The notes: generated by a model from the letters alone, not told the origin. 64,000 bases of DNA from Marsupella aquatica (GCA_973895155.1 OZ316897.1:23287455-23351454), one strand, 5' to 3'; counted from the first letter of the stretch, positions 21,928 through 64,000 are shown. Numbers and translations: made by a program.

Positions 21928-22383
21928 CTTCTGATTGAACTCAGGTGCTCTGGGCTTCCTCTGTCAGCACCACAACCCACGATCAGATCTGCTACCAGGA
22001 TAAAATCCAGGAGATTCCACGAGGTGCAATGAATTTGTGGTTATTTCTTGACGGCTATGTTCCCAGTGATCTTTTTACAATGAGTGTTCAGAAATGGATA
22101 GCAGACCGGTAAGCCTCTCGAGTTCTAGGGTGCATTCCTACCTCCGTCCAAAGATGTATTTTCTTGTCTCCCTTGCTCTGCTGTGATGTTTGGTACTGAT
22201 AACTTGCAAAAGTTACATGACTCCTTTCCAACTGAGAGTAACGGGTATCTGTCAAGAATGCAATGATCTTAGAATAGAATATTGAAATAATTGTGAAAGG
22301 CTTATCCAGGTATCAACAAGCTCGTTCCTTCTCCCGTATTTCACTGTACCCACAGAAAGGACAGAGTCAAGAGCCTATCGAAT

Positions 22384-37480: not shown

Positions 37481-37791
37481 CACCGTGACAGCAAATAGCA
37501 AACAGATTTACTCTTACGAGCAAAACTTTTCCTGTTATGAGCAAAAATTTACTGTTACGAGCAAACTAGACAATCCTAAAAATGTGTCATTAACAGTCAC
37601 AATTTTCAAAATAATTTAAAACATGACATTTTTTTGCTAGTGTAAGGCGATACTATTACTAGCTCCGGGCGCTAGCCAAAAAATATCGACTCACAATTTG
37701 TTTTTAATATTTTTTCCCGCAAAATAAATTCCAAATTTTTTTCCACCCATTTGCTGTTACGAGTAACTGTTTGTTGTTTGCTGTCACGGTG
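37481..37791. mobile_element. CACTA-like terminus and subterminal inverted repeats
   Basis: tttttttgcTAGTG ends at 37642 (reverse CACTAGCAAAAAAA). Repeated ctgttacgagcaaa motifs. Inverted pair caccgtgacagcaaa (37481) and tttgctgtcacggtg (ending 37791). Confidence 0.5.
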
Positions 37792-39346: not shown

Positions 39347-39349
39347 GTA

Positions 39350-41234: not shown

Positions 41235-41269
41235 GAGGTGAGGCAGTCGCCGCAGCGTCTGGAGAGGCT

Positions 41270-42340
41270 CTACGCAATAGATGGCAGGGTGGGCAGAGTT
41301 GATGCGAGGGGAGTACGGGAAGAAGGCTGCAGTGCTATCTAGGCTCCCGATGCAATGACGTTTGAAGAATGGTGTCGGGATCGGTTTACTTTGTATTGTC
41401 ATGGCACAACGGTCTGTTTCGTGCAGTCATGGCAAGAAGACCATGGAACTAGGATAAACCCTCAACCGTAAATGGTAAACCCTCAACCGTAAACATGAGG
41501 AGCCCTGGTTTGATGCCATCAAGGCTCGTGATGAGATGGCCGCACAATGCGGGGTTGTGATGAGTTGGCATTTGGAGGATGGCAGGATTGGAGTTGATCC
41601 CTTGGTGTATGCAAGGCCAAGGGACGGAGCCACAAGGAACAACGTCGGTAAACCCTAAACAATGGGGAGGGAGGGTGGGCATAGTTGATGCGAGGGGAGT
41701 ACGGGAAGAAGGCCGCAGTGTTATCTGGGCTCCCAACATAGTGATGTTTGAAGAATGGCGCGGGGATCGACTTACTTTGTAATGTTGGTTCCTTTGTATT
41801 TTCATGGCGGGACGGTCTTTTTTGGGCACTCGTGGCAAAAAGACCACGAAAAAGACTGCAAAGACCGGGCATTGCGATCGCTGGGCTCCACAAAAATGTA
41901 TATATGATGTTTGAAGGATGGTGCGGGGATCAATTTACTTTGTATTTTCATGGCACGACGGTCTTTTTTGGGCTGTCGTGGCAAGAAGACCATGAAACTA
42001 GGGTAAACCCTAAACTATAAACGATAAACCCTAAACCATAAACGCAAGGAGCCTTGGTTTGATGCCACGAAGGCTCGTGATGAGATGGCTGCACAATGGG
42101 GGGTCGTGATGAGGTGACATTTGGAGGATGGCAGGATTGGAGTTGATCCTTGGTGTATGCAAGGCCGGGGGACGGAGCCACGAGGAACAACGTCGGTAAA
42201 CCCTAAACAATGGGGAGGGAGGGTGGGCATAGTTGATGCGAGGGGAGTACGGGAAGAAGGCCGCAGTGCTATCCGGGCTCCCAACACAGTGACGTTTGAA
42301 GAATGGCGTGGGGATCGACTTACTTTGTAATGTTGGTTCC
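41270..42340. repeat. Degenerate long tandem repeat (about 540-bp duplicated unit) with taaaccctaaa motifs
   Basis: About 41430-41790 is repeated at about 41975-42340. The sub-unit gatgtttgaagaatggYgYggggatc recurs four times. Confidence 0.75.
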
Positions 42341-42662
42341 TAACAAGAAGCCTTAAGGGATGAGTCCAAAGCCTTATTTCTCTTTTCAAAATCTTCATGA
42401 TATTCAAAAATGTGTACCAAAAAACCACCAAAAAATGGTATGTATTTTCCAAACTAGACTCAAGAGAATTTTACCACCAAAATCTAAGCATATCTTATAT
42501 GATATTCTCACAATTGTATAAACCTTGAAATATGCACTTTATAAAAGTAGTCAAAATCAAACTCATCGATCAGAGTTTAAGTCAAACTCAAAGTTTTACA
42601 AAATATAACCCAACTTAACCCCAAGTGGTTTCAAATGCTACAAGTCCCCCTATTTACCTAGT

Positions 42663-45600
42663 CTAATCCAAAAGGACCGCTTCCCCTTCCTCGGTTCCGG
42701 AAGTCCCTGCCATCAATTCTGGAACAATTGTGGCATCGTCAACCACGCTATCCTCTTCGGCCTGAGGAATGTCTTCCTCACTATCCTCATCCGTCTCCCC
42801 CTGTCCGTCTTCCTCTTCAATGTTATCTGCAAGGTTAAGAATCCTCCCTTTCAACACACTGCTCTGTCGCTCGTCAATCTCAATGGCAATGCAATGTCTG
42901 CCCATGGCCAAGGAGGAGGTTGTCCCAGTCCCTGATCCTGAACAAATATCCAAAACCCAGTCTCCAACCTGACTAAAATGACTCACTTCCCAATCTAACA
43001 ATGCACGTGGTTTCTGATAGACATTCACTGCCTTGTTATCCCCGTTGTGTTTCAACTTCTTAGTCACAGCTGCGCATACAACCACATTGTTCCTGGATTT
43101 ATTTGTGTCAAAATTGAAGTGCTCCAATGACCGTTTACCATCTGGGCTGTGAAAGCCAATTGTAAAGCACTCAAAGTTGTTGTTCAATCTTGGCCCACCA
43201 GCATTCTTCACATTATCCTTAACCCTGAAAAGTCACAAAAAGTCAAGGAGTCATTTAAACTTAGAAACATGGATCATGAAATCACGAACAACTAATAATT
43301 GTTTTTTTCAAAGACAAATATTTCTTACCACACACAATTCTGGAACCCTCCATTACACTCCGCTTTCAAAACGGTCTTGATGGCCTCATATTGGTCAAGG
43401 CTGTGGTGAATGATAATACGCCACAACTTCGCAGTAGTAGCCACCTTGAAAGATTGGACCATTTTTGTGATCTCCTCAATTCCCCATCCAGTAGTGTCCT
43501 CATGAAGACATCCAGGCAATGCAAACCCGTAGGGGATATCCACTAAAGCTAATGTGTAAGCCCAACCCGGAACCACCTCGTGTAATCGCTGAGCATCATG
43601 AGAAAAATATCATAGTGCACATCACCAAACTCTGGATGCTCAAAAGAATTTGGATGAAGTTCCCCCTCTTGGGTTTGCCGACTAGAAGTCTTCATGGATA
43701 GCCAATTTTGCGCTTGCACAATATACGCATTGAATTTATCCGGGAATGACTTGAGATATTTGCCTTCCTCATCTCCCTTCTTTTTCTGGGAGGTGGTATC
43801 TTTCTACAAAAGGGAACCTTACAATTAGAAACAAGGATTCCAAATTCAATGAATTCAAACAATCATTCGAAGAAAGGTGACAAAATCTTACCCATGTCTG
43901 GAAAACAGGTATGAAATTCTTAAGCACATTGTCTGTGCAATGCTCAGGGTACTTGGTTTTACAACCTGACCAACTCTCAAACACGTGAGGAAGGCCTTCT
44001 GCACCTGCATATGAAATTTGTGTCGAGTAAATTCGTGACCCATTTCCTGTAAAGAGATTTCTTTAGTAAGAACTCTCTGTAACACTGGGCAAATCATATC
44101 AGGATCTTTCAAGGCCTGCATGTGTCTCCACTCTGTTAATTTCATGTCCTCATAAGGCAATTTGGCATCTCCAGACTTAGAAACTTTCTTCTTGCCCTTG
44201 TCTCCTTTTTGACCTTTGATCTCACACATCTCCCACTTGTCACAAATCTGCCTCACAAATGACCACACAAGATCTTGTCGGAATGCCAATTGAAATAGGT
44301 TATCGTTGGCATTAAGAACCTCAGCATCCTTTTGCACACCCCAATCCTTGAGATTGATTTCAGTAGCACACTCTTTCTTGAAATCCTGGTTGGACGACAA
44401 TCCATTCTCCACAAATCTCATGTGAATATAATTTACTCTCTGGATTGTCGTCATTTGTTGTCGAAATTCAGAATCAATATTGTGACTCCATGCCAAGTTT
44501 CTTGCCTCTTGCACACTCAATCCCGCAAATATCCAAGATTGCACTCTCCAAAATGCCTTGTTGTTAGGGAACTGAAGAGCAAGGTCTGCTTTGGCACAGG
44601 CTGAATGGTTGGCCCCAATCACATAATAATGGTAATCAGATTTCCTTGAAAAATCAAAGTGTCACATCGTCGGCTTCGGCCTTAACTCAGACTTCAGCTT
44701 AGACGGACACATCCCTCGTAAATCTGAGGGTTCGGGCAGGAAGGGAAGCACGTAATGCACCTTATTCTCGTAAACTAGCGCTAAGTGCGCATACTGCTAA
44801 ATACGGACACCTCCTAGGTATGGTTTGTGTTCCGCCGCCGGAACGTACCTTAGTCAATAGCAGGATCGACCCCGGCTTAAGGGCTTCTAAGCCTTCATGC
44901 TGTCCGCCTTCGATCCGGATTCGATGATACAGGTCCTCAACCCGTGCTTGCAACCACTTACCTGCAGGCTGCACCCTATGCACGTCTCGGGTAGTGCGTT
45001 CGGCCTAGCGCTGCCACCCATATACGAGAAACCCACACACATACACGCGCACATGCATACAATCTCCACATGATGGAACCCCGGGGGGAGATCTCCGCCG
45101 CCCAGGTTATCCAGGTCGAGAACTATCGACCTAGGAGGTGGGCGTCGTACTTCGCTAAGAAATTCCATGAAGAGATGGAGCGGCGAAGGAAGACGCTGTA
45201 CATTGGCGGGAAGGCGTATTTCGCTAGCCACATCGAGATCATTCTTGAGTGGTACGCCCGGTTTGATCGACGAACCCTTCCCCGTGTCAACATTACAAAG
45301 CTGGTCCCAGCTAGGTGGGTTTTCCCGGCCTTGGAGAGACGGCCCCAACCCGAGGCCCGAAGTCCAGCGGACACGCCAGCTTCACCCACCCCACCTCCAC
45401 AAGTAGCTGTAGTCGTAACCGAAGAGGTACCGGATGGGTCGGTTGTCGCAACCGTTGATGCGACCCAACAAGTCGGGCTAAGTACAGAAGTCGGTACGAC
45501 GGAGGTCTTACCCGAGCCAGGGTCTCCCAAAGACCCACCGGTGGCTATTTCGGAGAACCGGACATTGCTGTAGGAGGACACTCCAGCCCCTTCCAACGTT

Positions 45601-47346
45601 ACGTCCCCAGGGCTGGACGTCACTGCCCCGGCCCCCGTGCGTGTTGATGTCTGCCCATGCCCAACTCTGGACAGGCACAACCTGGACCACCCGGAACTCT
45701 TCGTACCGGGTACCTTTCTAAACGGGCTTCTGGGAGATTTCTCTCATCAAATTGCCCGGGATACCGGGGAGTTCATGGCCCGGAAGGTAGCCTGTTTCTT
45801 CAATCAGGAGTTGGTTGCCGCAGTAAAGGCAGGTCGGGCCCAGTCAGAGGCCCTTCAGAGGATAGAGCGGTACCGGGTGGAGTCCGTGTACCTAAAGAAC
45901 AAAGTTGCAGCTCAAGAGGCTAAGCTTCTGCAACTACGACCCAAGGTTGCAGTCGCCGATAAGTTGTTAGCAAAGGCGCACGCTCTTACCGCCCTAGCCG
46001 AACAGGCCAAAGCTGGGAACGAGGCCGAGATTACACGACTCCGGAACCAGATTGACAGTTTGAAGAATCAAACTGTCACCTGGCATAGCGACCCGCCGCC
46101 AGTCCGAACCTGAATTCCCCCTTATTGCCTAATGATGTCCTACCCATAATGATTACCTAAGTACTGTTGTTATGCTAATAATAGCAGCCTAAGACACTCC
46201 TAACGCGCGTGCTAAGCGCAGTTAGACCGAATCACTCATTAACCGCCGTACCGGTGGCGTCACACAAAGTCTTGCCTAGTAGCACACTCCTTCGGATCCA
46301 CCAAGAGGACAAACGGAGCTGCAAGTGGACTGGCACCTACAGTCTTCATCCGCAAGGTCAATTGGGTCAAGAAATATGGTTGGATGTGTCAAACCTGGTA
46401 AATGGGCAAGCCCCTAGCCTTCTCTCTCACTGGAGGGTAAAGTTGACCAATGTCAGCCGTCACGGTCTCCTCTTGAACACCACATCTTCCTAGAATCTCC
46501 TCCTGGTACAATACCCGTGCATCCATTGACATTGATTGAGCCTTTTGCTCCAAATGCATCGGAATTTTCTCCAAAGTCTTCTTTTTTGACTTTGGAGCAC
46601 TGGGCTCGACAGGCTCAGGAGTCATAGCAGGTCGCTTCTTTGAAGAAGTACGAGTTCCAGTCGTACCTTGTGCCGACCCACCAGTCAAAGCCGTTCCCTA
46701 GGATGATCTACCAACTTGAGATCCCCCTCCAGATGCTGCTGCTTCACAGGAGGTTGTAGGCGCTACCACGGTCAAAATGTCATCGGGTAAAATGCTAGGC
46801 CTAGATCTAGAAGGAACACCGGAAGCCCCAGATTTGGGTGGACAACTTACCCCCTTCTCTACCGATCTTTTTCGGAGAATCTCTCGCAATTTTTGGATTG
46901 CACTCTTTAAAGTGCTAGCGTGAAATTCGAACACAAAACCGGAAATCTTTCCCACGATGTCGTGGTAACGTTCCTTACTCGAAAGAGACTTGACAGTCTC
47001 AATGATGCTATCAATGTCCTCATCGAGATAGCAGGTGGCAGCCATTCTGGAAAACCTCTCCACATCCACGACAATCAAAGTCAACGTTTCCTTTGTTGTG
47101 ATCAACATGTTCACAACTTTGTCGCCCCGTCAAAATACATCAATACGGACGTAATTTACCCACTGTAATGCCCCCGATGGAAGCCCCTCAAATACACACA
47201 ACATTAGGAAGGGCTTCTTCCATGTTTCCGTCCCTAAGGAAATCGTCCAGGATGAGTTGTGGAAGTCCGTCAAAGGATGGCGCGAAAATATGTCATCCAC
47301 CAGCTCTTCCTACGACATTGTCATGTTTCCGCCTGATCTTTAAAAC
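42663..47346 (-). pseudogene. ParB-like domain plus beta-class N6/N4 DNA methyltransferase fusion gene 1 (spliced, disrupted by C insertion, stops and frameshifts)
   Basis: ParB-like region YQV*HIQPYFLTQLTLRMKTVG..PFVLLVD..YYVIGANHSACA is in frame after removing 44660-46264. MTase motifs LALVDIPYG, CVW|VKDN..NNFECFTIGF, NVYQKPRALL, GDWVLDICSGSGT..SLAMGRHCIAIEID. GT-AG introns at about 43891-43819 and 43328-43225. The 5' end is approximate. Confidence 0.8.
44660..46264 (-). mobile_element. Family C copy 2 (1605 bp, internally deleted, with an inverted internal segment), TSD CAAAG
   Basis: CAAAG at 44655-44659 and 46265-46269. Termini match C copy 1 in reverse orientation, while about 45064-46085 matches the C ORF in forward orientation. 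Confidence 0.9.
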
Positions 47347-47987
47347 CTGAAAACATACCACAAAATCAGTCCACTTCAAACCCAACCTGCGAGACAAAGT
47401 GCCACAGAACCAAAGAATGTGCCAACAAATGGCTACTAAAGCCGTGTCCTTACGGATCTAACAACGCTCTCGGCCACCCCAGGACTCCTATCATGAATTC
47501 ATGAAGGGAGTCTCCCTCTCGCACCGACCTTCATGAATTCATGAAGGGAGTCTCTTCTCTCTTTGCATGTACACCTCGGAGATTCAGAAGGGTATTGAAA
47601 ATGGGGTTTGGAGGGAGGGTGATGTGAAGAAATCACCCAGGGTCTAAATTACTACCTAAAATAAGGTTGAAATGAAGCGCAACCATGACAACTTGCGACA
47701 CGTTGCCGATGAGTGCTGAAAATGACACGAAATTGGACAGCGAGATTGTTTTTCACTCTTTTACAAAGGAAATCCAAATGACATCGAGTGAAAATGAATG
47801 GGCTGCCCCGTGTTACTTGGTTATACATACTAATCATGGATCAAGCGCGACTTAGTAAAATTAACACCAAATCATGATAAATCAATGTTTTCGGGCCAAT
47901 TATTCATGAATATTTTGGGGTAATAACGAGAAAAAGTTCGTAAATTTCATGAATATCTGATATTTTTGAAGTTAAGAAGTCACAACA

Positions 47988-48123
47988 TGTGACGCCGCCG
48001 GTACGGCGGGTAATGAGTAATTCGGTCTAACCGCGCTTAGCACGCGCGTTAGGGGTATCTTAGGCCGTTATTATTAGCATAATGACAGTACTTAGGTAGC
48101 CATTATGAGTAGGAAATCATTAG
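47988..48123 (+). mobile_element. Family C 5' terminal fragment
   Basis: tgtgacgccgccggtacggcgg...attagcataatgacagtacttagg matches the first ~135 bp of C. Confidence 0.85.
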
Positions 48124-48175
48124 TATCAGCCTATTCATTAAAAGTGTATTTTCTTTTGTTCACAAATCAGTCCTG

Positions 48176-48255
48176 AAATGTACACTTTTATGTCCCCAAA
48201 TGTACACTTTAAGAAGCCCAAATGTACACTTTTTGATACCTAAATGTACACTTTA
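48176..48255. repeat. Four spaced copies of aaatgtacacttt (candidate subterminal repeats of a DNA transposon)
   Basis: The 13-bp motif is repeated four times at about 22-bp spacing, downstream of the HAD gene. Confidence 0.6.
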
Positions 48256-48495
48256 TAGGCCAAATCTTATTAGTATTATATTAATTATAATAGTATTATA
48301 TTACTTATTAGTTCACAAAGAACCATGGGATAGAGATCATACTTGTAAAAACATTTACGCACAAAGAAGCCTAAGCAAGGACCATTGATTGATAATGTGT
48401 GAAATAATTATATATAATTGTGTCCAAACTTACAATGAATATCCAGGGCTGGCACCCATTTTTACTATCTAATGGGCTTAACATGAGTCAGATCT

Positions 48496-49535
48496 CTAAA
48501 CAAAGTGCTCCTTACAATATTTATTTGAGCACGTGCCCTTGTCTCCTTTACTATCTACCCTAATGTCACGGTTGCAACTCCCTTTATCTTCAGGGAGATG
48601 AAATTTGGTGGTGTTGTTCCTAACTGCTATAATCTCCCGCAAAAAGTGTCTGGGATTTTCTCTATACAGACCTGAATATTCCCGTCCTACAAATGATCTA
48701 GCAAGTGAGGTGACAAGTGCATCGTCAAGTTCCACCGCAGGACGTAAGCTACATATACGTTGCTTCACAGCCCAAGGAATCTCATTGCTATTGAGGTCCA
48801 GCACACTATGCCTATACTGTGACTTCCAAATTTTTGCTGCACATCTCTTACTAAGTTGATCATAAGTAATCTCATTTTTTGCCTTGTCTCTCTTAATGTG
48901 CAATAGAGACCACTTTGGAGAGTTTAGGAGAAGATAACAACGAATGTCACTTGCATGTGACAGTTTCTCAAGACATGGCCAAAGAATTGTTAGAAGAAAA
49001 TTGTCTCCACGATTGGCATGCGTGTAGGGCACTGGAAATAGTCCGGTCATGTCTGGGTTGGCAAATGCCTTCAAGGGGGAGTCATCCACAAGGAGTGTGT
49101 TGGTTTCATCATATAGATTTCCAAATGCACTCCATACCACCCGAAAATCCTTCAATAGCACATTTGCCTTTCCATTTGTAATGTCACACCTTTGAATGCC
49201 TGTGTCAAAGGCTTCCACCTATGTGAATACAAACTTCAGTTTCAACCGCTCCTCAACAGTGAACATCATGTTCAACATTTTCACTGTCCGCGGCATCCCA
49301 GCACATGTCCAAATTGCAACGTCAAACCGGTCAAAAACCAACTTTAGAAACTCATGGAACCCTGGCCTCTGTGTATACATGCGACTAGTTCCATTTGATC
49401 TATCCCAATGCACTCCATTTGGGGTCACAATGTTTCTGGATTTGCCCTTGCTTTGGAATTCAAGTGAATCCCAAAGTATTTTGTTAAGATCCAAAATCAA
49501 CAACTTCCGCTTGATGGGACAAGGTCTCGATTCTG
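48496..49535 (-). pseudogene. FCP1/NIF-like HAD-superfamily phosphatase with one in-frame stop
   Basis: KLLILDLNKIL, RPGFHEFLKLVFDRFDVAIWTCA, LLKDFRVVW, NTLLVDDSPLKAFANP. ORFs 49219..49665 and 48496..49218 are separated by a single TAG. Probable splice acceptor ttgcag near 49533. Confidence 0.8.
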
Positions 49536-52354
49536 CAAGTGCAACAAATACAACTCTTAGAAAGAAAACCAAATTTGAACTTTGGACTGAGATTGTCTCA
49601 GTCCAAAAATACAAGACAATGACTAACAACAAAGAAAACCTACATACCATTTTTAGAAGCCCCAAAGAGCGTAGGTGGATATCGAGGCTCTAATTGCTGA
49701 CCGCATTCTGTGAGACCGAGAAGTATTTTAGATTGGTATGAAAAAATGGAAAGTCAGACGGTTTGATCTCAGTCTGAAAAAAGAGATCCGTATTCATCAA
49801 TAATGTCAACACCCAGCTCCTCTTGGATTTCAAAATTGACATCTGAAGTACTTTGTTCTACCCAATAAGGTGACGTCCAAACAGGAGTTATCAATCCCAA
49901 TTCTCCTCTCTTATACTCCTTCCTGTTAAGAATCGATGGAGCAGCATCCAATGAAACTTCTTGGCCTCTATTTGGCCCACTTTTCCACACATAACATCGT
50001 GCATCACGTTCAAGTGACCTCCATCTGGTTGATCCAACTCTATTCCCTTTTTTCTTTGAGAGAGGAAGGACAACTGGACTTCCCGAGTGTGAACGAACAA
50101 AAACCAATTTGTCATCAGAAGCTGAAAAGAGTGTGTCAGGACAAATTGAAGCACCTGCCTGGTTGTCAACAGTCGCTGATGCACGGGCTTCTGGGGTCAT
50201 GGGAATCTCACGTACTTCGACAGCCGTCCCGGGAATCAAATTTTGGGTGTCAGCTTCATTCGAATTGACCTGTCTGTCTCCACCGTCCGCGACCAAATTG
50301 GTTGACGAACGATTTTCAAATGTATCAATGTCAATCGGATCACCAATTCCGTCCGTTTCTCGTTGCACCACATTTGGATTGAGACCATCCTTGTCCAAGT
50401 TGTCATCAACCTCAACTTCATAGGGTTCCAAAGGGACGTCATCTGCACGTGATGAAGGGCGTGGTGCAAGACCAAGGTTATCATCAACATCGTAGGGTTC
50501 TATGCTTTCACTTTGACCTACACGGTCATCCAAATTCTTTGCATACGCCACCTCTGATGCCCCATCATCTTTGACTGACTTAGCGCCCACTTCTTCGGAA
50601 TTATCAGCTGATTCATGTTCGGTAGAAACATCCGTAATAGTGGGTTTCCAATGCCTAGAACTCCCACCACGAGGATCCCAATTTTCCTTGATTGAGGGGA
50701 CCCTCTCGCAAAGGAATGAAGCATACGCTTCCACAAAGTGTCTCTCATCTTGAGAGTCATAATAAACAAAGCATTCGCGTTGCACCAAGAATGCTGTCTT
50801 CATCACTTGACCACCCGAGAAAAAATCAAGAATCAAGTCTCCAGCTTCTGACAAGGATTCAATAATCCTCTGTATCATCCGCGTGGGTTTGGCATGTGGA
50901 TTCACCCAACCACCACGAGCACCAACTATCTCAAATCGAGGGGCCATGTGCAAAACCTTGGTCGCCTCTTCTGGGGTCAGCATCATTTTTAGATCTTCGG
51001 GTTTTGACACGTCGTCTGTGTCAACCTTTGCCTTCCCAGTGTCAATCTTGGTGACCTCAAAATCAGTATCTTTTGAACCAAAAAAGAATTTTGGCTTTGG
51101 ATGATTGGGTTTGAAAACATCATTCCAATTCACATTTTCATCTCGAGAAATTCCTGCGAATATAACTTCTTCAATTCCGCCTCCCCAACACGAATCAAGC
51201 GGGTGCGGTTGATCCTCTCGAGAATAACTCCCATACTCAATGTGAATGGTGAGAGATTTCTCTTGTCCCAATTTTCGAAGTGAGCTTAGGACATTCATTG
51301 CAAGAGGCCCCGAATGAACAGTTATGGCTACAACGATTGTAAGATTTCGTGGTAGCTCCACAATGTATTGCAGAAAGACCAAAACTTCTGCTTCCGTCCA
51401 CAGCTTCTGGTGATCTCGACTGAAGTCAACAATGGCAAGTGAGCACGTTGGAGATGATTCTTCTATTGCTGGTGGATCAACTGTTTTCATTAGATTGTCA
51501 CTAAAGAACGTGACCCACGGTTGGCTCCGAGAATGTGTCCCTCCGCCAAACTTCTGGCAATAAATGTCATCAAGGCGCATCACCAGAGCTATTGGCAAGA
51601 TTGCACTCTCCCTGGTATGATTTGGCTTCAACAGATTTGACAAAAAAACTTCACCAGCCGCTCTTCTGCATCTACTGAATTCTGCGTCAACACTCAACAA
51701 TGGCAGAACCTCTACAACTTTCTTCCAATCGGTATCCGAAGGGAAATTCCTTGGATCCTTGCCGAAGTAGTACTCCTCAATGAGAGACTTGAGCTTCCTC
51801 ACTTTTTTCACATCCTTCGCAAGCTCCTCTATTGAGGGTATGTCAGATTTATTTGTGGCATCTTTCTTCAGCAATGCCTTTCCTGACTTCACTTGTGTCA
51901 GGATTTTTGTGATGTCTTTCTGTGAGATCAACTCACCATCAAAGGGACGAAACATGGCAACGGTAATTGCTTTTTCGGAGTTGTTATTTCCTTCCATCCC
52001 AGCTCCATCAGGAAGTTTCCCATGCAACCACATCTCACAGACTAACCGCCACAACTCAAAAAGATCGTTGTCCGCAAAAAGTAGCCAGTATACATTTCGC
52101 AAGTCCTTCCTGCCCATAGTCATTCTTGCCAGAGCCAACCAATCCTACAATCCAAAAGGAAAGCTAGTCAGTTATCCCCAACGCAAGGGTTGGAAAAAAA
52201 GGATTCTAATGTGCGATAATAGTATTGGATTCGGATGGTCTCAATCAAAAACAAAACTCGTACTAAACATTCCAAAAGTTCCAATACTCTTTGACAAATC
52301 GTGTCGGACTGAGACCATCCGAATCCAAAATAGAATTACTCTCTATGGTAGAGA

Positions 52355-55300
52355 TGTGGTGCGTCCCATGGCTCCCTAAACCCAAGAAACCCCCCAGCTC
52401 AAGCCGATTCCCGCAGGTTTCGTGCTTGGCGAGGCCGTTTCCGCGGCTTAGCGGCATGGGACGCTGCTAACCTTCTACTACTACTATTAACATTTTACAC
52501 ACATATACTGGACAGATCCTTCATCGGGTCATGAGATACGTAGCCGGCCTAATATAGGCCTTCCCCTGTCTTCCCCTGTCTTCTTGTTAGGTATGTTTGG
52601 ATTCCGCCGCCGGAATGATCCCCAATAGGCTTGGTTAAGCCGCTAAGACCTCTCTCAGCTCGACACATCCAACTCTCACTCCCCTGCTTACTTTCCTTCC
52701 TTCTGTTGATGTGGGCACTCTTCACACAAGTTAATGCGACACACAAATAGCAAAATGACTCATTCTGACTGAGTCATACCATGCACTTGCCATACAAACA
52801 GTACATCTCATACACAAGTTCTGCGAACTAAGCCGTGAGGCCAACTCTATTCAGCTCTTAGGCATGAGGAAACATGAATATACACAAGGGTCACTGTATG
52901 ACTAACCGAGAGCTTCTCGTACTACTTGATCCCAGCCCGGCTGGTGCAAACTAAAAACTTGCTAAAGAAGAGGCCCTGAGCTCCCCGCTGCCCAGGTACT
53001 TATCCTGGTAGTGGATCCGCCATTCTTTGCATCGTAAGCCTAATCTACCTGACAGTAATCTACTTGCCCGAATCTACCTATGTACAACAAGGCAGGAGCA
53101 CAAGTGTTGCTCCTACCAGTGGGACCGCAATCCCACTAAGCTAAGTGTCAGGGCCGCTCCTGGTTCTGATCCTAATCCTAAACGTGGAGATCCGTGCCCG
53201 CCCTGCCCACTCACGCCTCCTCCCTCCACGTCCGCCCTCCCTAAAAGGAACGGCGCCCTTGCACCGTCACGACACCGGTGGTGGATCCTCAATGGACGCC
53301 CCCAACACTTCCTCCTCAGCCACTACCGTTGGCCCGCCTACTGACAGATTACCTGCCCTTGACCGAGTCAACTCTCCATCGGCCTGACTGGGTCCACCTT
53401 CGGCTTCAGCCTCAACACCGGCCTCGGCAATACCCACGGCTTCGGCCTCAGCCACTCCCACGGCTTTGGCCTCCCCTTCCCCTAGGGTAGTTGGATCCTT
53501 AGCCGTGACCCTGTCTGGGGTCGGTGCTGGGTCTACCTCCTTGATCACCACGGCCTGTGAAGTCGTATTACTCCTTGACCCTGAAGGTTTCCGCTTCTTC
53601 TTCGTTGGTGGCTCGGCAGCTGGTCCCTTCCCCTTCCCACTTACTTCCGGCACTGGTGCAGGTGGCGCGGCTTGTCCTTCGGCAATTACCACCCCTGGTA
53701 ACTGGTTTGTCCCAACGGGAGATGGACCTGCTGCAGCTAAGCATTTAAATACTGCAGCTTGTTTCTTCAGCCGCTCTGTTTGGTTGTCGGCCCGCCGCTG
53801 TAGGTTCTCCATCTTCCTCGTGATTTCCTCCAACTCCTCTTGGGTTTCATCCAGGTCCTTACGTGCCCCCTCCAGCTCGTTTTTGGCCTCCTCCTGCTCC
53901 CTGTGGGCTTCCTCCAATTCCTTCTTCAAGGTAGCCCTCTCCTCCTGGGTTGCTCTTAGCTCCTTGTCGAGCTCTGCAATGATGACAGACTCCATCTGGT
54001 TCATCTTGGCGTAAGTCTGTTCGAGCATCTCGTCCTTCTCCCTTAGGTCGGCCTTGAAGCTGGCCGTCAGGGACGCAAGCTCCTGCTGCAGCGCCATAAT
54101 CCCTTGATAGGATTTCCCTAACTCGACCTCCTTCTGCTCAAGGGCTCCGCGGATTTTCTCGAGCTCCCCTTTCAACGCCCATTCCTTTCTTTGGGTCTCC
54201 GCCATGGCCCGGCTGTTGGCTGTTATGTGGGCCTCCTCTGTATTCTTCAGCTCTTGCTTCCACTTCTCCCTCTCTTTGATCGTGTCGGCCAACTCTTCCT
54301 GCGTCTGAGTCAGTTTATCCTTGATATTCTGATTATCAGCCTGCGCGGCGTCCAACTGCCCCTGCATGATGTTCAGCTCATGTCGTTTAATCCGCAGTTC
54401 ATCCAGGGCTTTCTTGGCCGCCCTTAGATCTTCAATCTCAGCTTCCATCCTCCTAAGCCGTCGAATGACCTCGTCCTTCTTGCTTCTCTCTAAAGCCACC
54501 GCTTCTTCTAATTGGTGCTTCTCCAACTGCTCCCTATGGAAAAAGGGTCCTATCTCCAACTCCTCTCCAAAGATGCCGAGCGCAAGTTCCCCACACATCT
54601 CACCATACTCCATGGCTCTATTCTTAGCGTAGGTGGAGTAAGTAGAAGTGATCGGCATCGCCCATCGTGGCCTCTGCTCCCAAGCCGTCCTGCGGATCTC
54701 TTCAATCGTGGCTAGAGGTTTGCTTCCTTTTTCGGCTAGCCGCCTGATGTCCTCCGGCCAATCTCCTCCTGGTAAATCCTTTTCCTTAGCCAGGGCGGCC
54801 TCTTCCTCCTGCTTGATTCGCTCCTGAAATTCCTGCACCGTCTGTTTTATGCCGTCGAAGCTCGGGGGAGCAACATCTGGTGGGGGAGACTCAGGGCTAC
54901 TCTGCTGGTTGGGGTCCCCTCGCACTACCCTTGGAAGTGTGGGGACAAACCGGCCACAGGTCCTTACTCCTGGAACGTGATGGTCCGACCCATAGCCGGA
55001 ATTATCATGGCTGCAGTCCTCCACTGCCTCCTCTACCTCTTGGACGTCCGGCTTCTCCCTCTCCTCTTCGTCGGTAGGAGCTTCAGGCAATTCTGCCTCA
55101 GATTCGGAGCTTGAGGTTCCCACGTACATTCGAACACCTGGCTTGGATTCCGGCCTGATTCTCTCCTTGTTTCCAGCAAAGGGGTTTTCTCTTGTGAGCC
55201 GGTGTAGGCCTACCTCTGTAGTAGTGTCCTGCATTGTTGCCGTTGCCGTTGTTGTTGCCGATGCCGATTTCTTTTCTTTCTCCAGTAGTTTCAGCAGACT

Positions 55301-56981
55301 CTGCATGCCTGGTTGCTGCATCGGCAAGTCTTCCTTCCTGGGCCTAAACACCTGCTCGATCGTAGGACTAACAGGTGGTTGAGGTTTCTCAGCCAACGGC
55401 CTCGGCGTTGGAGCTTCCTCGGGTGCCCTTACCTGCAGGGGAAGTACCGGGGCAAAAGTCTGACCTCTGGCATACCGGCACAACAGCGGCATGTGATAGC
55501 CAAGCCGCGACACGCTCCCCATGCCGATTACCTGCTGCTCCTCCTTTAAGATCTTCTTCAATTGGTTGAGGAGGTACCCGTTGTAGTCCCGGCTTGGGTC
55601 TGGCCTTTCTGCCAGATAGACCTGTGCCTTGCCGATCTCTGCCCTCGGCAAGTTACAATGCATGGTCACCCGCAAGAAGTCGATCATCTCTCCTATGTGC
55701 GGGTTGGTGCAGGTGTTCCGGAAGAAGCCATTCTTCGTTGATGGCCCGGGGAACGACCGGAACTCCTTGTCAGGCAAGGTCTTCCTGGTATCAACTTTGG
55801 TCTTATTGCCTATCGGCAGGCCAAACACTTCGGCAATTACCTTGGGAGTAAGATAGAAATCCCTCCCATATATCCTCGTGCAATTGGTCTCGGGTTCCCA
55901 TGACCCCACGAATTCTAATAGGTCTGACTCCGGTAACTCCGGCTTCAGCCATGGTAATCTTACAAAGGCCTCCAAGCCGGATCCGGCCATGAAGCCTTGG
56001 TACTTCTTGGTCTGCATGGCCGTAAAGCATGCATCCTCCTCCCGTGCAAAATGTAGTTGCACCTCCACCGATAGGGTTGCCGCCCAGCCCTTCCAGGTGT
56101 CATCCCTGGTTGGAATGGCCTTGATGGGATCGACCTCCTCCTCTTCGGCTTCTCCCTGCCTCCTGCTCTGCTGCTCGGCTGGCTTCTTTGGTGCCGCCGA
56201 CCTCGTTCTTTTTGCCGGGGTGGCTTCATCGTTGACGGCTCCCTTCCTCTTCATCTCTGCTGCCGTGGAGGTTTCTCCTAGCACCGTTGCCTGGGTCCAC
56301 CTTTCCGTGCTACCCTTTAATTCCCAGTGTATGTCGTTGCAGTTCTTGATGGCCTCTCGGATGCCGACGACGCTGTCTTTGCAAAACAGAAGATCGTCGA
56401 GTTGATTGGAAGTAGGCGTCCACAGGAACTCGTCCTTGATGAGTTCGCCTCCTAAGAAAGCCGTCTTCTACAGCTCCCACAATCGAGCGAGCTCCTGCCG
56501 TTCTCGAGCTGCCCTTTCTGACTCCTCGTCCTCGTAAGTCTTGATGTACTCAGTTGCCCGTTCGAACAGGCATCCCCAGAAATGTGTCGCTTGATTGACG
56601 TTGCTCATACCCTCCTTAGGTCGATCGTCGGTATCTACTCTCTCCCCGAGTGCTTGCCTAAGCAGCTGACAGTAGTTGGCCTCCCGTAGTCGTCTGCCTA
56701 GTTCGTGCTCGCAAATGAGCCACCATCTCCTGCAAGCGCTCCTTACTCCTCTCCTCTGCCGGTCCTTCTTCCCGTTGATCCTTCCTAGCCGCCGACGCTT
56801 AACGCGCCCTAACCCTAATCGGGTTTTCACCCTTAGCCTTACCTCCGGCCTCTGCCCGGGTTCCATGGTTGCCCCTAATTGTTTATATTTTCCTTGTTTT
56901 GTCACTATACTAAGGTGTTCCTAGGGTGCCTTCCTGCTTTACCCACTTAACCGGCCGAGTGATTCCTGTCTAGGCATCACA
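52355..56981 (-). mobile_element. Family A copy 4 (4627 bp), TG...CA, TSD AGAGA, inserted in intron 2 of ParB-MTase gene 2
   Basis: AGAGA at 52350-52354 and 56982-56986. Nearly identical to copy 2. Its ORF (56866-53267) has one TAG at 56468. Confidence 0.95.
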
Positions 56982-58721
56982 AGAGAAATGCATACAAAGT
57001 AATCACATTTCTTACCTGAAATTTTTGGTTGTCTTGAGCATTTGTTTTGTTGTCGCCATGTTTTGGTTTGTCTGGATTTCCACATTCAACAAACTGCCGC
57101 CTCGCATGGACAACTGTATCTTTAAAGCAAGACTGAAACACCATCGTGCTATTGATGGCGTTCGATCTCATGGAGTGCTCAACAAGAATTGAAGACGGTG
57201 TGCGATCAGACAATATTCTGGATTTCCTGAATTCTAACTTCTTGGCCAACTGGGTGAGCTTGGCATCCTTTGTTGCCCAATCACGAATCCATCTCGCAGC
57301 TCTCGTAGAGTGCTGACCACTAACGGCTAGAAATTGGACCTCGCCCTTTTTCACTCCGGCCAAAAAATCCTTCCGGTCCGACTCTGTATTCTCAAAGTGG
57401 AGTACCTTTCTTCGCTCGACGTTAAAAGGAATCAAATCAGCGACATGTGGCTCATGCCCAGGTGTTTTGATCATGGAATCAGCAATGTCTTGCACATGAT
57501 CAAAATTCATCATCCGATAGCATAGTCTCGCTGGTGCGGCAAAAATACTTTCAACTGGGATCAGAAAAATTTCGTTTATCCCAAAAGTATAGTACTGCTC
57601 CATTTGTTGAAGAACTTCATTCCCTTCTAAGACGTCTTTCTCCTCTGGAGCATGTAGCCTATCACCCTCATCTTCAGCATGTAATGAAAAATCTACAGGA
57701 GTTGAATTCACAACTCCGGTGTCGGTTTTTTGTTTCTTCTTCTCCCTCGACTTCTTCTCGGCTGGAAGCTTCTTCTTCTCGGTTGGAAGCTTCTTCTTCT
57801 CGGCTGGAGCCGTGATCTTCTTCTCAACTGAAGTAGGTTTCTCAACCAGAAGCTTCTTCTCCCTCTGCTTTCGCTTCCCTGCCGCTCTATCCATGGTTGT
57901 TGCTGCAGTAGTTTGTGTTGTCTCCGTCGTAGTTGCTGGAGTTCCTTTGGCTGGCGTAGACTCAATTATTTTCTATGGTTGTGTACTTTTCCTCAACTTC
58001 ACCAAAGACTCTACCCATAGATTTGCTTTTTCCAGGTCAAGCGTGTGTGCAAAGGCTAGTGCCTTGGCGATCCAAACATTTGAGTCTGGTGACACCAGAC
58101 CTGCTTTCTCAAGCAAATTGTTAAGAGTCCATGTGGATGGAAAAGAGAACTTTGATGGGTTGTTTACAATGTTGAGTTTCAAATAAAGAAACCCATAAAA
58201 AATGTCCAAAGGAAGCATTCCCTTCAGTCCTCCAATAATCTTCTCCTTTGTGTAGGATTTTGGAAAGAATCCCATCGACAACACACTTAATTCCCCACTT
58301 GCATACCATTCCACATTGAACTCGGCCGAGAAAGCCTTTGTGGGGAGCTGCAACTTTGCCCACCTCATCGTGTCCGACACCTCTACAATGATAGAATTCA
58401 TTCCTCTTCCTATCATTCCCACAGAGACCACGGGTCCGATGACCAATGTTTGGTTGTTGCCTGTCCTGATCTTGACACATAACACTGGATCCTGAATGTT
58501 AAATGAATTCAGGCGGAAGTTAACTCGCGAGAACTCAAGTCCCTACCGAAATCCTGGATCGCGGTCCTCCAAAATGAGCCCATCGTCGCAGTCTGCCTCT
58601 GAAATGGCAAGAGTTGTATTCACCAGATCACTCTCTGCATAGGAGAGTGAAAATTCATATTAGACTTCAAATCCATGAAATTTGTTTTAAGAAATCACTG
58701 TCAAAGTGAGATTGAAGGCTC

Positions 58722-59295
58722 TTGGATTCGGACCATCCGAATCCAATACAAGAAGCCCACTTGGATTCGGATGGTCCGAATCCAAACAACCCTCTTAGAT
58801 TCGGACCATCTGAATCCAATCAAGCCACTTGGATTCGGATGGTCCGAATCCAAACAACCCTCTTGGATTCAGACCATCCGAATCCAATCAAGCCACTTGG
58901 ATTCAGACCATCCAAATCCAAACAACCCACTTGGATTCGGATGGTCCGAATCCAAACAACCCTCTTGGATTTGGATGGTCCGAATTTAAACAACCCTCTT
59001 AGATTCAGACCATCCGAATCCAAACAACCCACTTGGATTCGGATGGTCCAAATCCAAACAACGCTCTTGGATTCGGACCATCCAAATCCAAACAACCCAC
59101 TTGGATTCGGATGGTCCAAATCCAAACAACCCTCTTGGATTTGGATGGTCCGAATTTAAACAACCCTCTTAGATTCAGACCATCCGAATCCAAACAACCC
59201 ACTTGGATTCGGATGGTCCGAATCCAAACAACGCTCTTGGATTCGGATGGTCCGAATCCAAACAATGCTCTTGGATTCGGACCATCCGAATCCAA
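58722..59295. repeat. Array of 17 copies of the 25-bp palindrome TTGGATTCGGA-(CCA/TGG)-TCCGAATCCAA, 34-bp period
   Basis: Copies start at 58722, then 58761 and every 34 bp to 59271. Linkers are 9 bp (acaacccWc-like). Confidence 0.95.
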
Positions 59296-59589
59296 CAACT
59301 TAAGATGCATGAATAAACCTCTGGGAACTTACTTTGGACTTGAGATTGAAATTCTTGGGAATCCCTAAGCGCTAGGGCCACAAGATCACCGACAGAGGAG
59401 AGATCCAAGTCATCAAATTCTTCGGCGAGAAGGACAATGACGGTTTTCTTGGCAACTTCCATTTTTAGGAGTGACACGTGGCAGGATATACTGAGGACAC
59501 GTCAAGATGGGCAAGATCTAGGGCGTTGCAGCAGATTAGGGCAAGAAGGCAATTAGGGCAAGGGCAAGGGATAGCGGCGGCAGCCAGCC

Positions 59590-59720
59590 AAGAGCGAGAG
59601 CGAGGAGCGAGAATGAGGAGCTAGAGCGAGAGCGAGGAGCGAGAGGGAGGAGCTAGAGCGAGAGCGAGGAGCGAGAGGGAGGAGCGAGAGGGAGGAGCGA
59701 GAGTGAGGAGCGACAGAGAG
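59590..59720. repeat. GA-rich low-complexity repeat (gagcgagag/gaggag) in a probable divergent promoter or 5'UTR region
   Basis: Tandem gcgagag variants between the two divergently oriented genes. Confidence 0.7.
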
Positions 59721-60489
59721 AAAACAACAATGAGGTCTGTGGAAGACCTCGTCCTCCCTTTACCCCCTCCTGAAAGGCTTGTTTGCGTACGGATGATCGC
59801 TGCACGGATCATCTCTGTACGGATCATCTCTATACGGATAGAGACCAAGAAGGGATCTGGTCCTATCAGTTTGGGTGGGACGCTAGCTGTATTGTCTAAC
59901 ACAATGGATTGAAAAAGGATTGGATGATTGTTCTAACCGCGATACTCGGTGTTGCCTCAACCTTATCGGATCGCACATTCAGGGCCGAACATACCAACCC
60001 ACGAGTATAAGAGGTACTCTACAGACATCATTGTTGTTTTAGTTTCATATCTTCACTTGGGCATCCAGGTCTGCGCAACTCCTCCTCAGCTCTTCTCTCT
60101 GATGGAGTTTAGACTTGAAGTGACTTTGATAGCTTTCTTAGTCAGATTGATATGAACTTATTCATCAATTTAGAGGTAGCAGAGCCAACCTTGGAGACAT
60201 ACTGGAAAAACAAGACTGCTGAGGTGAGTTATGGTCTTAGTCGCTTTGCTTATTTTGAGTTCTTAGGGAAGAGAGACGAACCCTTTCACTTTGTTCTGCA
60301 TTCTAGTGACTTCCCAATTATTATTTCACGAATTACCCAATGTTCCGAAAAACCCGGAATGTCTAAATTTGATTAGGAAGAGATCTCAATCTCAATATAT
60401 CCATCTCAACATAATCTTCATTGTGGAGTTAGACCATTTGAATCCAGACTTGATGTGTGGATTATAATGGTCCTAATCCTAGATTGTTG

Positions 60490-61550
60490 TTTGGATTTGG
60501 ATGATCCAAATCCAATCCATTTCTAGGATTGGGACCATCTGATCAGATTCCAATCTTGGTTTGGATTCGGATGGTCCGAATCCAAGAGGGTGTGTTGGAT
60601 TCGGACCATCCGAATCCAACCGTGCAATGCTTAAATTGTGACCTTTGGGATCCAATCTCGGTTTGGATTCGGACCATCCCAATCCAAGCGAGATGGTAAA
60701 TACAGTCTGGTTTTTGATTTGGATGGTCCGAATCCAAGAGGGTGTGTTGGATTCGGACCATCCGAATCCAAGCGTGCAATGCTTAAATTGTGGCCTTTGG
60801 GATCCAATCTCGGTTTGGATTCGGACCATCCCAATCCAAGCGAGATGGTTGAATTTGGGCGTTTTAAATACAGTCTGGTTTTGGATTCGGATGGTCCGAA
60901 TCCAAGAGCGTGTGTTGGATTCGGACCATCCGAATCCAAGCGTGCAATGCTTAAATTGTGACCTTTGGGATCCAATCTCAGTTTGGATTCGGACCATCCC
61001 AATCCAAGCGAGATGGTTGAATTTGGGCGTTTGAAATACAGTCTGGTTTTGGATTCGGACCATCCGAATCCAAGTCCGATGCTTAAATTGGGACCTTTGA
61101 AATACAATCTTCGCGCACCATCCCAATCCAAGCCGGTTTGTTGAATTGGGACCTTCGGGATAGAATCTGTGTTTGGATTCGGACCATCCGAATCCAAGAT
61201 GGTGGGTTGGATTCGGACCTTTGAAATACAATCTGGTTTTGGATTCGGACCATCCGAATCCAAGCCCGGTGCTCAAATTGGGACCTTTGAAATAAAATCT
61301 GGGTTTGGATTCAGACCATCCCAATCCAAGCGCGTTTGTTGAATTGGGACCTTTGGGATCCCATCTGGGTTTGGATTCGGACCATCCAAATCCAAGAGGG
61401 TGTGTTGGATAGAGGTTGGTTTGGATTCGGACGATCCCAATTCAAGCGAGATGCTTAAATTTGACCTTCAGAATAAAATCTTCATGGTTTTGATTTGGAC
61501 CACCGGCCCCAATCCAAGCGTGATAGTTGAGCCAATGTTTGGATTCTCAG
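60490..61550. repeat. Second array of the same 25-bp palindrome in higher-order units of about 155-165 bp
   Basis: Roughly twenty ttggattcgga-nnn-tccgaatccaa copies or variants, interleaved with repeated linkers (gcttaaattg, aatacagtctggtttt). Confidence 0.9.
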
Positions 61551-61640
61551 AATGGCAATCAAATGACCGTATGGATAATTGTGAGTCTCTTCAAATTCTT
61601 GTCATTCGGATTTGTGATGGTTTTTCTGAAAATTGTGCAG

Positions 61641-63285
61641 GTTACTAAATCCGAGAATGACTAGAAGGTTTTCAAGAGGTGATGATGTGACCTTGACAAT
61701 TGATGGAGATGATGTCGGTTGTGGGACAGTTCAGAAAATTAACCCCCAGGATAGGGTGCACAACATATTGTTGGGGGATAATCGAATTGGTGTGCTCATG
61801 GAGAAGGTTTTCGAGCCAACTCGAAAACTACCATTTCCACTACCAAGGGTAGAAAATCTTTTTGATGCCATTGACTCATGTGTTATTTGGGAGATCTCGT
61901 GCGCGTATCTCTCTATAACTCTAGATTCCCAAAAACGCATCAGTACTGGTAGTTGTTCAACTCGACCAGATAATAACTTGGATAAATCTCCTACAATTGT
62001 TATGGAGGATGCATCAAACACTCTAAGGCAAGGGGACGAGGTTGAAATGCTCATTGATGGGTGTTGTGTAGCCCTTGGAGTTATTTTCAAGGTAAATCCA
62101 AAGGACCGATGTCACAACATATTACTTGGTGAGTCTCGGATCAGTGTGAAAATCACTGATGTTATTCATGGTAGTAAGGCTTTACCTTACATACACAATG
62201 GGGCTGAAACAATTGAAGAGACAAAAGACTCATGGGTTCTCTGGGACTTGGCCGATGTTCATAAAAAAGGTTGGAATGTTGATGAAGGTAGAAAGTCTTC
62301 CTCTAAGAAGCAAGGTGATGGCGACGTTTTAATTGAGGAGAGTTTTGTCTCACATTCTCCATCAACAAAATCGACCAAAACTCATTCTGATTATTACCAA
62401 CGGTCCAATTGGATGTCAGAGTTGGTCGAATTATACATTGGTTCAGGACGATCGAGTAAGGTTGCCACTGGGACTATCACTGTGCCTCAAGCAACGGCGG
62501 CTGTTGATGATGAAATCCTGGGAGAAGACTATGTAGGGGTTGTTGTGAAAGATGTCATGGAATCGCAATACTTTCCAAGCATTCACAAGGGAGTAATTAG
62601 TTTGGTTCGATGGCGAATTGATCACACAAAACTAGTAGCAACTGGAAAAATTTTGTCAGACATTCTGGTAGAAGGTACAGAGAATATGGAGTCAATGGAT
62701 AGGGATGATCTGAATCCGGATCATGTGGTTGGATCCGCATCCGGATGTCGTCAAAGGCCATATAACTTCAACAAGAGGAATCAAGTTGATCCTGTTGAGA
62801 AGAAAAGGAGGCTCTTGCAAACCAAGGCAGTTTCAAAAACAACAGAAGCCGCAATTGATGAGATCAAAAGAGTAAATTGCTGCAAGCATAAATGTTGTCT
62901 CATTATGCCAAGGGAAGATATAGAAGATGTTAGGATGGAATTTCACGGGATGTCTAGCGAGTCCAAAACATCACACATTTTCAACCTCTTCCACTACAGA
63001 GAGGATGATGTTCGTGATAAGGGACACCATGTTCTCAAAGGTATGGTCATCTGTAAAGATGCATTTGCAACCATCCATGGTTTTAGTCACACCAAGTATT
63101 ATGATTACAAGAGAAGATACATGGAGGGTTGCAAAATTGGGTTCCATGGGAACACAGGCTTGAAGAAAACAAGGTCAAATACCTTGCATGCGCGAGCTCT
63201 TCTAGAGGCATTTCTGACTCAAAATGCAGAGCCAATGCCTCATATGCCTTATGGAGGGGCCCATGGGACAGACAGCATTGAGTAT
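61641..63285 (+). CDS. Putative DNA transposon protein: three TNP1/TnpA-like domains followed by a Sola-like (DUF7869-associated) transposase N-terminal region; interrupted by family B
   Basis: Three repeats of G.V...dp...hn..LG.....V....V......LP; then CCKHKCC..EDVRMEF..VICKDAFATIHGFS..FHGNTGLKK..AEPMPH. Acceptor tgcag at 61640. The catalytic core is not in the window. Confidence 0.55.
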
Positions 63286-64000
63286 TGTCACGCGATTGAC
63301 ATGGGTCTTAACACCAAAGACGTCACTATGGGTGCCAAAACCATCTCCTTGTACCTGAGGATCACGAAGGGATGCTGTGAAGGCAGGTAAACACCAATTT
63401 ATGCCCTTAACACCAGAATATCATAACAAGACTCCGTCACACATCACCCAAGCTCAATCCCTAAGAACCAAGGTTGGGAATCAGATCCGCGCTCATGATA
63501 GTTCTGGTGAGAAGGAGTCTTCATATCGGGCCCGTACACACAGGGCCTAGCGCTACGATGCGCATAGGTCTATACGTATGCTTACTGTCATAGGTATGTT
63601 TCTATTCCGCCGCCGGAATGTACCCATAAACCAGTGACTCTTGACTGATTCCCGGCTTAGGGACTTCTAAGCCATTGCCCCACCACTCTGCCATTCCACT
63701 CTCAGCAATCAGAGCTATGACAGTCCTCACCCAGCCCGCTTCAATGCACCCTGTACACCTCTCAGTGGCGCTGCTAGTCCCATCATACACTTAGATTGCC
63801 TCACACACACACACATCCATGAGAGAAATGAGGCTTGAGAGGAAAACTCAATTAGATTCAACAATGTGCACAATAGTTCACTGAGAACACTTGATCCGAA
63901 CAATAGGCCCGAAGGCTGTCTACTCCAGATTGCAGTGTGCTTGCCCCGCAAGCCCCATGCTTGCCATGCAAGCTCAATCCTGAACCTGAGCCCGACTCAC
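63286..64000 (-). mobile_element. Family B copy 2 (cut by the window end)
   Basis: tgtcacgcgattgacatggg... closely matches 4081-4797. The expected TSD is AGTAT (63281-63285). Confidence 0.9.

Follow-up and report, generated by a model that had tools for sequence, protein, structure and literature searches.

The transposon lying at about 48125 to 63285 in a 64,000-nucleotide stretch of Marsupella aquatica DNA (GCA_973895155.1 OZ316897.1:23287455-23351454, the whole of which is referred to below as the window) carries dense arrays of a 25-bp palindrome in predicted introns. We favour the reading, with a probability of roughly 0.55, that these arrays are element-specific binding sites for the element's own ParB-methyltransferase-like (ParB-MTase-like) protein, acting like the targets of VANC or TnpA. 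In favour of it are the placement of palindromes in four predicted introns, the location of all four stray matches inside the element, and a sister palindrome changed symmetrically with its 11-3-11 geometry kept. Further support comes from arms conserved relative to linkers, from units joined by other linkers in public sequencing run X3, from an array depth close to that of coding DNA, from a partner gene combining a ParB-like part with a beta-class methyltransferase fold, and from a second element with its own upstream palindrome. The window is land-plant nuclear DNA, containing a PPR-DYW gene and pieces of Copia and other long terminal repeat (LTR) elements, and the nearest named protein relatives come from the liverworts Calypogeia fissa and Riccia sorocarpa. 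The element, LTR-cut at its right side and at least 10.5 kb long without its LTR insert, has three genes. The ParB-MTase-like gene (minus strand from 59462, three predicted exons, about 1370 codons) stands back to back with a transposase gene (plus strand, from about 61657); the third encodes a NIF-phosphatase-like protein. All introns were predicted from GT-AG signals and reading frame.

The palindrome unit is TTGGATTCGGA-NNN-TCCGAATCCAA, 25 bp in an 11-3-11 geometry. At up to 3 mismatches it has 34 matches in the 64-kb window, compared to none in 100 of 100 dinucleotide shuffles. The two arrays are as follows.

58722-59295: array 1, 17 copies with 8 CCA and 9 TGG cores, in predicted intron 1 of the ParB-MTase-like gene.
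60423-61513: array 2, 17 copies plus about 13 decayed units, in a predicted intron of the transposase gene (60224-61640).

Recounting bore out the first-pass annotation of the window in both places. Its 17 palindromes of mostly 34-bp period in intron 1 are those of array 1, where every copy lies within 3 mismatches, 7 of the 17 have perfect arms, and one 39-bp step is followed by 15 steps of 34 bp; the surrounding GT-AG intron (59332-58635, minus strand), a prediction from splice signals and frame, joins exons 1 and 2 in frame. The roughly twenty further palindromes that it placed at 60490-61550 correspond to 16 copies at up to 3 mismatches and 17 at up to 4 (8 of them perfect) at 60491-61445, together with the decayed units, which have 6-9 mismatches. 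Spacing in array 2 is 32-36 bp and 168-bp higher-order repeats are present. Its linkers are the reverse complement of those of array 1, so that the arrays are inverted relative to each other. Reading frames through the arrays were rejected as genes, that at 60482-61441 being without a Pfam match. The exact palindrome gave 0 matches in metagenome, viral and prokaryote contigs, which hold little plant DNA and are uninformative on confinement to the family.

Beyond the arrays, a loose outer-frame scan gave four matches, all four inside the element, compared to one match in 30 shuffles. The copies elsewhere in the element are these.

52225-52328: two hybrid units, inverted to each other, within intron 2 as predicted for the ParB-MTase-like gene.
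49581-49607: sister palindrome, a perfect 12-3-12, in a predicted 92-bp intron upstream of the NIF open reading frame.
50374-50398: decayed unit with a CCA core, in coding DNA, within the acidic-linker part of the methyltransferase exon.

The partial copies earlier reported at about 52225-52330 are indeed units, starting at 52225 (3 mismatches) and 52304 (4 mismatches); the other two sites of this list are absent from that first-pass annotation. In each hybrid one arm is array-type and the other sister-type, 22 of 25 bases are complementary between the pair, and the pair is also present in contigs of other public runs. The sister palindrome (arms TTGGACTGAGA/TCTCAGTCCAA) has three symmetric changes per arm and no GANTC, with the 11-3-11 geometry kept; it was observed once, compared to not at all in 40 of 40 shuffles of 48124-52354. 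Palindromes thus occupy four predicted introns across three genes, plus one coding site. A weak unit-like sequence with 6 mismatches at 62695-62719, in a linker of the transposase coding region, may be due to chance.

With symmetric arms, whether the core reads CCA or TGG only marks which way a unit points. In array 1 the linker after a CCA unit ends in AC in 7 of 7 cases and that after a TGG unit in TC in 9 of 9 (Fisher p 9e-5). This tie of core to next linker, 16 of 16, points to two inherited monomer types that arose from one old inversion and were later amplified; it speaks against ongoing core inversion, as the description of the core as 'flipping' had implied, and against recombinase sites with it. 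The reported alternation of CCA and TGG is confined to array 1, where 12 of the 16 steps show it; array 2 has 13 CCA-type and 4 TGG-type cores. At two places in array 2, 61049 and 61371, the core-linker context is odd in a way that fits exchange within arms.

Marks of amplification are plain, units 8-10 of array 1 recurring as units 13-15 through a 170-bp duplication and array 2 having its 168-bp repeats. They would suit a neutral internal satellite with no protein partner: slippage would have multiplied a hairpin-prone intronic palindrome (as DNA, a single unit folds into a stem of 11 bp closed by a loop of 3 bases), and template switching would have preserved its symmetry. Other internal tandem arrays in the window's mobile DNA (15671-16455), and decay purely by CpG/CHG-type transitions, sit well with such an origin. 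It leaves unexplained, however, the copies, one single and one paired, that lie 6-9 kb away in two further introns, the conservation of arms across inverted arrays with different linkers, and the constant 9-bp linker length with new letters in run X3, and we consider it unlikely. Arm divergence between the arrays is 8% compared to 44% for the 9-bp linkers, a gap inflated by the mismatch filter through which the arms were chosen; the consensus arms are identical between arrays while the consensus linkers differ at 3 of 9 positions. All 18 arm mismatches in array 1 are C>T or G>A, several being copies of one event.

The stretch was matched in six public runs from three organisms, contigs of four being compared over 56982-63290 and of four over 46300-52360. 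Long contigs of 99% identity at a depth of 150-200 in a 743-Mb run indicate a many-copy family. In all 4 runs compared, depth over the arrays stays inside the span seen for the element's coding parts and never exceeds it; contig depth being no copy number, this argues only against a large free satellite. In run X3 array 2 has a depth of 30-38k, about that of coding DNA, with most adjacent non-coding bins at 1-4k, and units are there joined via new linkers of 9, 9 and 10 bases, and also one of 14, at joints whose sides are only 23-26 letters long. In run X5 the arrays have depths of 0-16, compared to up to 120 in coding DNA, a low coverage that is as expected of a family-specific motif.

The arrays might instead act as RNA, with perfect stems of 25-31 bp between opposite-oriented neighbours feeding small RNAs or steering splicing. 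The fold of array 1 (-374 kcal/mol, z -26), the 28-bp stems of single dimers and the long stem made by the 52225/52304 pair are all in keeping with this, yet folding is expected of any inverted repeat, 13 of the 17 units in array 2 point the same way, the isolated perfect sister site can form a stem of only 12 bp, and Rfam yielded 0 matches. We judge such a role very unlikely.

The partner proposed in the favoured reading is encoded by three predicted exons.

59333-59462, minus strand: exon 1, 43 codons plus 1 base.
57016-58634, minus strand: exon 2, with an unassigned N-terminal domain, a lysine-rich linker and a ParB/DUF3723-like domain (57016-57630).
49769-52144, minus strand: exon 3, with a helical region, a beta-class amino-methyltransferase fold, an acidic linker and a conserved C-terminal domain.

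Exon 2 contains in-frame TAG stops at 58543-58545 and 57973-57975. At position 57975 the contigs of all four runs carry another base (175 of 198 depth in run X2, all of it in the rest), so that this copy is dead but the family need not be. The end of exon 2 is 58% identical to residues 1-43 of the Calypogeia fissa protein P0001, which continues into exon 3. In the Atlas, the ParB-like part scores 0.95 with a cluster in which 31% of members carry DUF3723 and 0.92 with one in which 35% carry ParB_N, at a recognition of 2541. The methyltransferase domain matches PF01555 (E 9e-6) and belongs to the same polypeptide, the junction being continuous in P0001. Its model (mean predicted local distance difference test score, pLDDT, of 57) superimposes on MboIIa (Z 13.3, root mean square deviation (rmsd) 4.2, 167 aligned), CcrM (Z 13.2, rmsd 4.9, 196 aligned) and rotifer N4CMT (Z 11.8). 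Among viral proteins it is closest to a phage ParB/Sulfiredoxin-MTase (E 8e-8); the methyltransferase alignment found one locus of 1.8 kb in metagenomes, which stops short of intron 1, and no locus in viral contigs.

The active site is rebuilt. At the position of motif IV, after the first core strand and assigned from the model and the beta-class motif order, 5 of 5 aligned relatives have DF[SG]R (DFSR here) and not DPPY, or (D/N/S)PP(Y/F). Motif I reads DFFSGGQ without variation in all five relatives, opposite DFFAGSG of M.RsrI in the alignment, and is thus conserved but altered relative to FxGxG. The sequence VDPPA was rejected as a catalytic motif, not being conserved among relatives. These observations bear on the proposal that the arms are GANTC methylation targets of a CcrM/HinfI-like enzyme of the element. 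CcrM is among the top fold matches, and the consensus arms do contain GATTC/GAATC as annotated, although the site is intact in only 50 of 68 arms and lost in the other 18. CcrM, at 16% identity, is however tied with MboIIa, RsrI and others (Z within 1, 16-19% identity), and the fold match therefore gives no sequence specificity; GANTC is moreover common across the window and so needs no array. Because DF[SG]R replaces DPPY and the sister palindrome lacks GANTC, methylation of this kind is highly improbable.

The other side of the element is occupied by the following.

59463-60223: region between the divergent genes, with GA-rich repeats at 59592-59713.
61641-63285, plus strand: N-terminal 543 codons of the transposase gene, cut by an LTR at 63286, before the catalytic core.

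Called TnpA-like in the first-pass annotation, this gene is actually the N-terminal half of a DUF7869 DDE transposase, not a CACTA TnpA. The piece contains three Tnp1/EnSpm-like repeats and a Cys-rich and HGN region, and aligns with the 1250-residue relative P0007 at 36% over 568 columns (E 7e-96). PF25273/DUF7869 was found in 12 of 20 scanned transposase relatives, in 10 of them above the cut-off. For the model of the relative P0120 (mean pLDDT 60) the top 14 structural matches are all integrases or transposases (Z 7.2-8.3, rmsd 2.7-7.4), scores that are middling but all from one family. Foldseek with the transposase model gave no E below 0.001, a hidden Markov model search of solved structures no match, and word-indexed protein searches with the transposase and ParB pieces no match, the last being weak evidence. 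The continuation past the LTR cut is seen as loose ends in runs X2 and X5. A CACTA/En-Spm identity with TnpA was rejected (no CACTA[CG] in 41227-53321, a transposase of DUF7869 type, and PF03017 below cut-off at E 0.001), as was a virus insertion. By its sequence the element appears to be a Sola-like DDE transposon, not a proven Sola1; that superfamily has a 4-bp target duplication with an AWWT preference (PMC3845634).

The binder of the palindromes could also be this transposase, through its Tnp1/EnSpm-like repeats or a helical DNA-binding part, or a host factor. Transposases can be sequence-specific activators of their own copies (bioRxiv 10.64898/2026.08.24.746577), the P0120 model has a small helical domain before the core with a weak CENP-B match (Z 5.6), and the PF03017 match, if sub-threshold, exists. 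The usual transposase sites would be the separate 22-bp subterminal repeats at the left end, however, and the palindromes are internal, 10 kb away from these; we hold a binder of this sort to be distinctly unlikely.

A second, distant ParB-MTase-like element lies at 42400-47987, split by an LTR at 44660-46264, cut at 47988 and multi-copy in the runs. Its exons are these.

43891-44661: ParB-like exon.
43333-43585: exon with DIPY.
42666-43232: exon with motif I.

It matches the same methyltransferase profile (E 6e-7 and 1e-5 among the three exons) and keeps DIPY, a catalytic motif that looks nearer to those of active enzymes. In pairwise comparison of the two elements, neither the ParB exon nor the DIPY exon aligned significantly. 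Upstream of its gene, at 47490-47547, is a different palindrome, CCTTCATGAATTCATGAAGG, with a GAATTC centre and partial copies at 47902 and 47946.

If the ParB-MTase-like protein is the binder, it would occupy each 11-3-11 site as a symmetric dimer and cover the introns to either side of a bidirectional promoter, which we infer in 59463-60223 together with the 5' exon(s) of the transposase gene. A single inverted duplication of one site or inverted pair (compare 52225/52304) may have come first, with CCA-type and TGG-type monomers then built up into dense clusters by slippage or unequal exchange, as with VANC motifs. The bound protein might keep the element's genes active or shield them from host silencing by 5-methylcytosine (5mC). 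It would act mainly by binding and recruiting and not by methyl transfer, because the catalytic motif is rebuilt. The earlier suggestion that the palindromes are sites for the element's own proteins thus agrees with our favoured reading, on the indirect evidence of their placement in four predicted introns of a single element, the symmetric sister change, the arms conserved beside differing linkers and the array depth; its GANTC-methylation part lacks support and the TnpA label does not hold.

A number of results weigh against this reading. The X3 joints are weak and contig depth is not a copy number. In L001, a distant relative at 33% identity, no palindrome with arms of at least 7 is present in the homologous intron 2, and the second element has only two full and two partial palindromes. 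Template-switch correction can, without any selection, alter a hairpin-forming palindrome symmetrically. The ParB-like part has no Pfam or PHROG ParB match. The CTP-binding (CTPase) motif of ParB is GxxRxxA, and exon 2 has GQHSTRA, in which the first arginine is missing. Searches of the helical region (exon 3, 1-200), which barely test for a helix-turn-helix, found none, all Atlas leads being below 0.9. Finally, array 1 mismatches of C>T or G>A in 18 of 18 cases imply that the array was methylated and decayed like ordinary silenced DNA.

More broadly, it is conceivable, though we would sooner doubt than assert it, that giant eukaryotic transposons kept a phage-type pair of ParB-MTase and palindrome as a private anti-silencing or licensing circuit. 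A rebuilt protein of methyltransferase fold would load at family-specific 11-3-11 intronic palindromes around a bidirectional promoter, with site and protein co-diversifying between families, across land plants, algae and animals.

The remaining features of the element are as follows.

48125-48260: probable left end, 22-bp subterminal repeats with a AAATGTACACTTT core; LTR similarity ends at 48124.
48496-49690, minus strand: NIF (HAD) phosphatase-like gene, stop at 49219, PF03031 at E 1e-6 on both pieces.
52355-56981, minus strand: TG...CA insertion of 4.6 kb with an AGAGA 5-bp target duplication, in intron 2 and foreign to the element.

The left terminus probably lies between 48125 and 48168, and the right end is outside the window. 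Public-contig depth over 48127-48329 is several times that of the element interior, which suggests that many short non-autonomous derivatives share this end. The NIF-phosphatase-like gene is multi-copy in the public runs. The insertion is an LTR-retroelement piece with several copies in the window, and its empty site is present in a contig of run X2. Full copies of this TG...CA repeat lie at 7924-12595, 25019-29678 and 52355-56981 and a partial one at 38044-39348, 91-98% alike; they carry a coiled-coil open reading frame of 950-1225 codons without a Pfam family and resemble unusually long solo LTRs. With two stops, two LTR insertions and C-to-T decay, this copy of the element is dead.

Elsewhere in the window, a CACTA-type element at 40177-41233 has the right end TTTTTTCCACTAGTG (about 41219-41233), 12-bp subterminal repeats CCTGTATGACAC and a Tnp1-like exon, and a further CTAGTG end with 20-bp repeats lies near 37632-37642. 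At 15671-16455 there are 40 copies of a 19-bp repeat with a GAGGGCAAGATG core, a similar word occurring between the divergent genes at about 59500-59560. A single clear host gene is present in the window, at 19063-21963: an intact-looking PPR-E-DYW gene of 966 codons, within which a 303-bp repeat occurs four times. Mobile DNA at 35150-35780 contains degenerate repeats that are G-rich or like plant telomeres (CCCCTAAA, TTTAGGG).

The closest known system is Sola1-1_Ec32 of Ectocarpus, a 21.5-kb element with a gene for a 1104-residue ParB-like and N4/N6 methyltransferase protein opposite its transposase (PMC12477816). That paper proposes that such proteins bind and modify their own transposon, and cites Iyer 2011 and Petroll 2025, which may describe targets. 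It reports no palindrome arrays, the string 'palindrom' occurring 0 times in the main text and once in the supplement, for another element. A literature search likewise gave no report of palindrome arrays with such genes, but this is weakly shown since the search also missed the Ectocarpus passage. Common to both elements are large size and a methyltransferase-domain gene on the strand opposite a DDE transposase; a ParB-like part of the same polypeptide is suggested here by the Atlas scores. Compared by description only, ours differs in its land-plant host, its added NIF-phosphatase gene, its DF[SG]R motif and its dense intronic palindrome arrays.

VANDAL elements are Mutator-like. The Arabidopsis VANDAL protein VANC binds clustered, family-specific motifs in non-coding parts of its element (PMC5735166; PMC10398659). 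As here, a family-specific motif is amplified in tandem in introns or non-coding parts beside an accessory gene, but VANC motifs are of 8-9 bp and not palindromic, and the transposase here is of DUF7869 type. For TnpA of En/Spm, binding and reactivation need motif clusters of high density (bioRxiv 10.64898/2026.08.24.746577). Clustered targets with an element-encoded candidate factor are again shared, whereas TnpA sites are terminal and of 10 bp and the present ones internal 25-bp palindromes, with no CACTA end.

Among bacterial systems, KorB, a ParB-family protein with OB sites, regulates promoters at a distance (PMC11790492). ParB/KorB with parS/OB, and phage ParB-MTase fusions (PMC4738411), likewise unite a ParB-family domain and palindromic sites on one mobile element. 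The present case, known from sequence, is instead eukaryotic and spliced, with a methyltransferase-fold fusion, tandem 25-bp sites and a CTPase motif that is not intact. MpDN4MT1 (bioRxiv 2021.02.12.428880) and rotifer N4CMT (PMC8885841) share the beta-class amino-methyltransferase fold class, but are genes of the host that keep their SPPY-type motifs intact and lack a ParB domain, as opposed to transposon cargo with a rebuilt motif. DUF3723, for its part, is conserved cargo of Starship elements (bioRxiv 2021.12.13.472469).

New here, then, is a land-plant member of a known element type whose active site is rebuilt and whose predicted introns hold palindrome arrays that are candidate targets. 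For the ParB-MTase accessory proteins of algal transposons self-binding had been proposed with no target named, and the arrays offer a concrete candidate, whose natural variants (sister site, hybrids and decayed units) are ready-made controls for binding tests. If the favoured reading is true, the protein would represent a new sequence-specific DNA-binding scaffold and would give plant transposons a third, bacterial-derived means of steering their own chromatin, next to VANC and TnpA.

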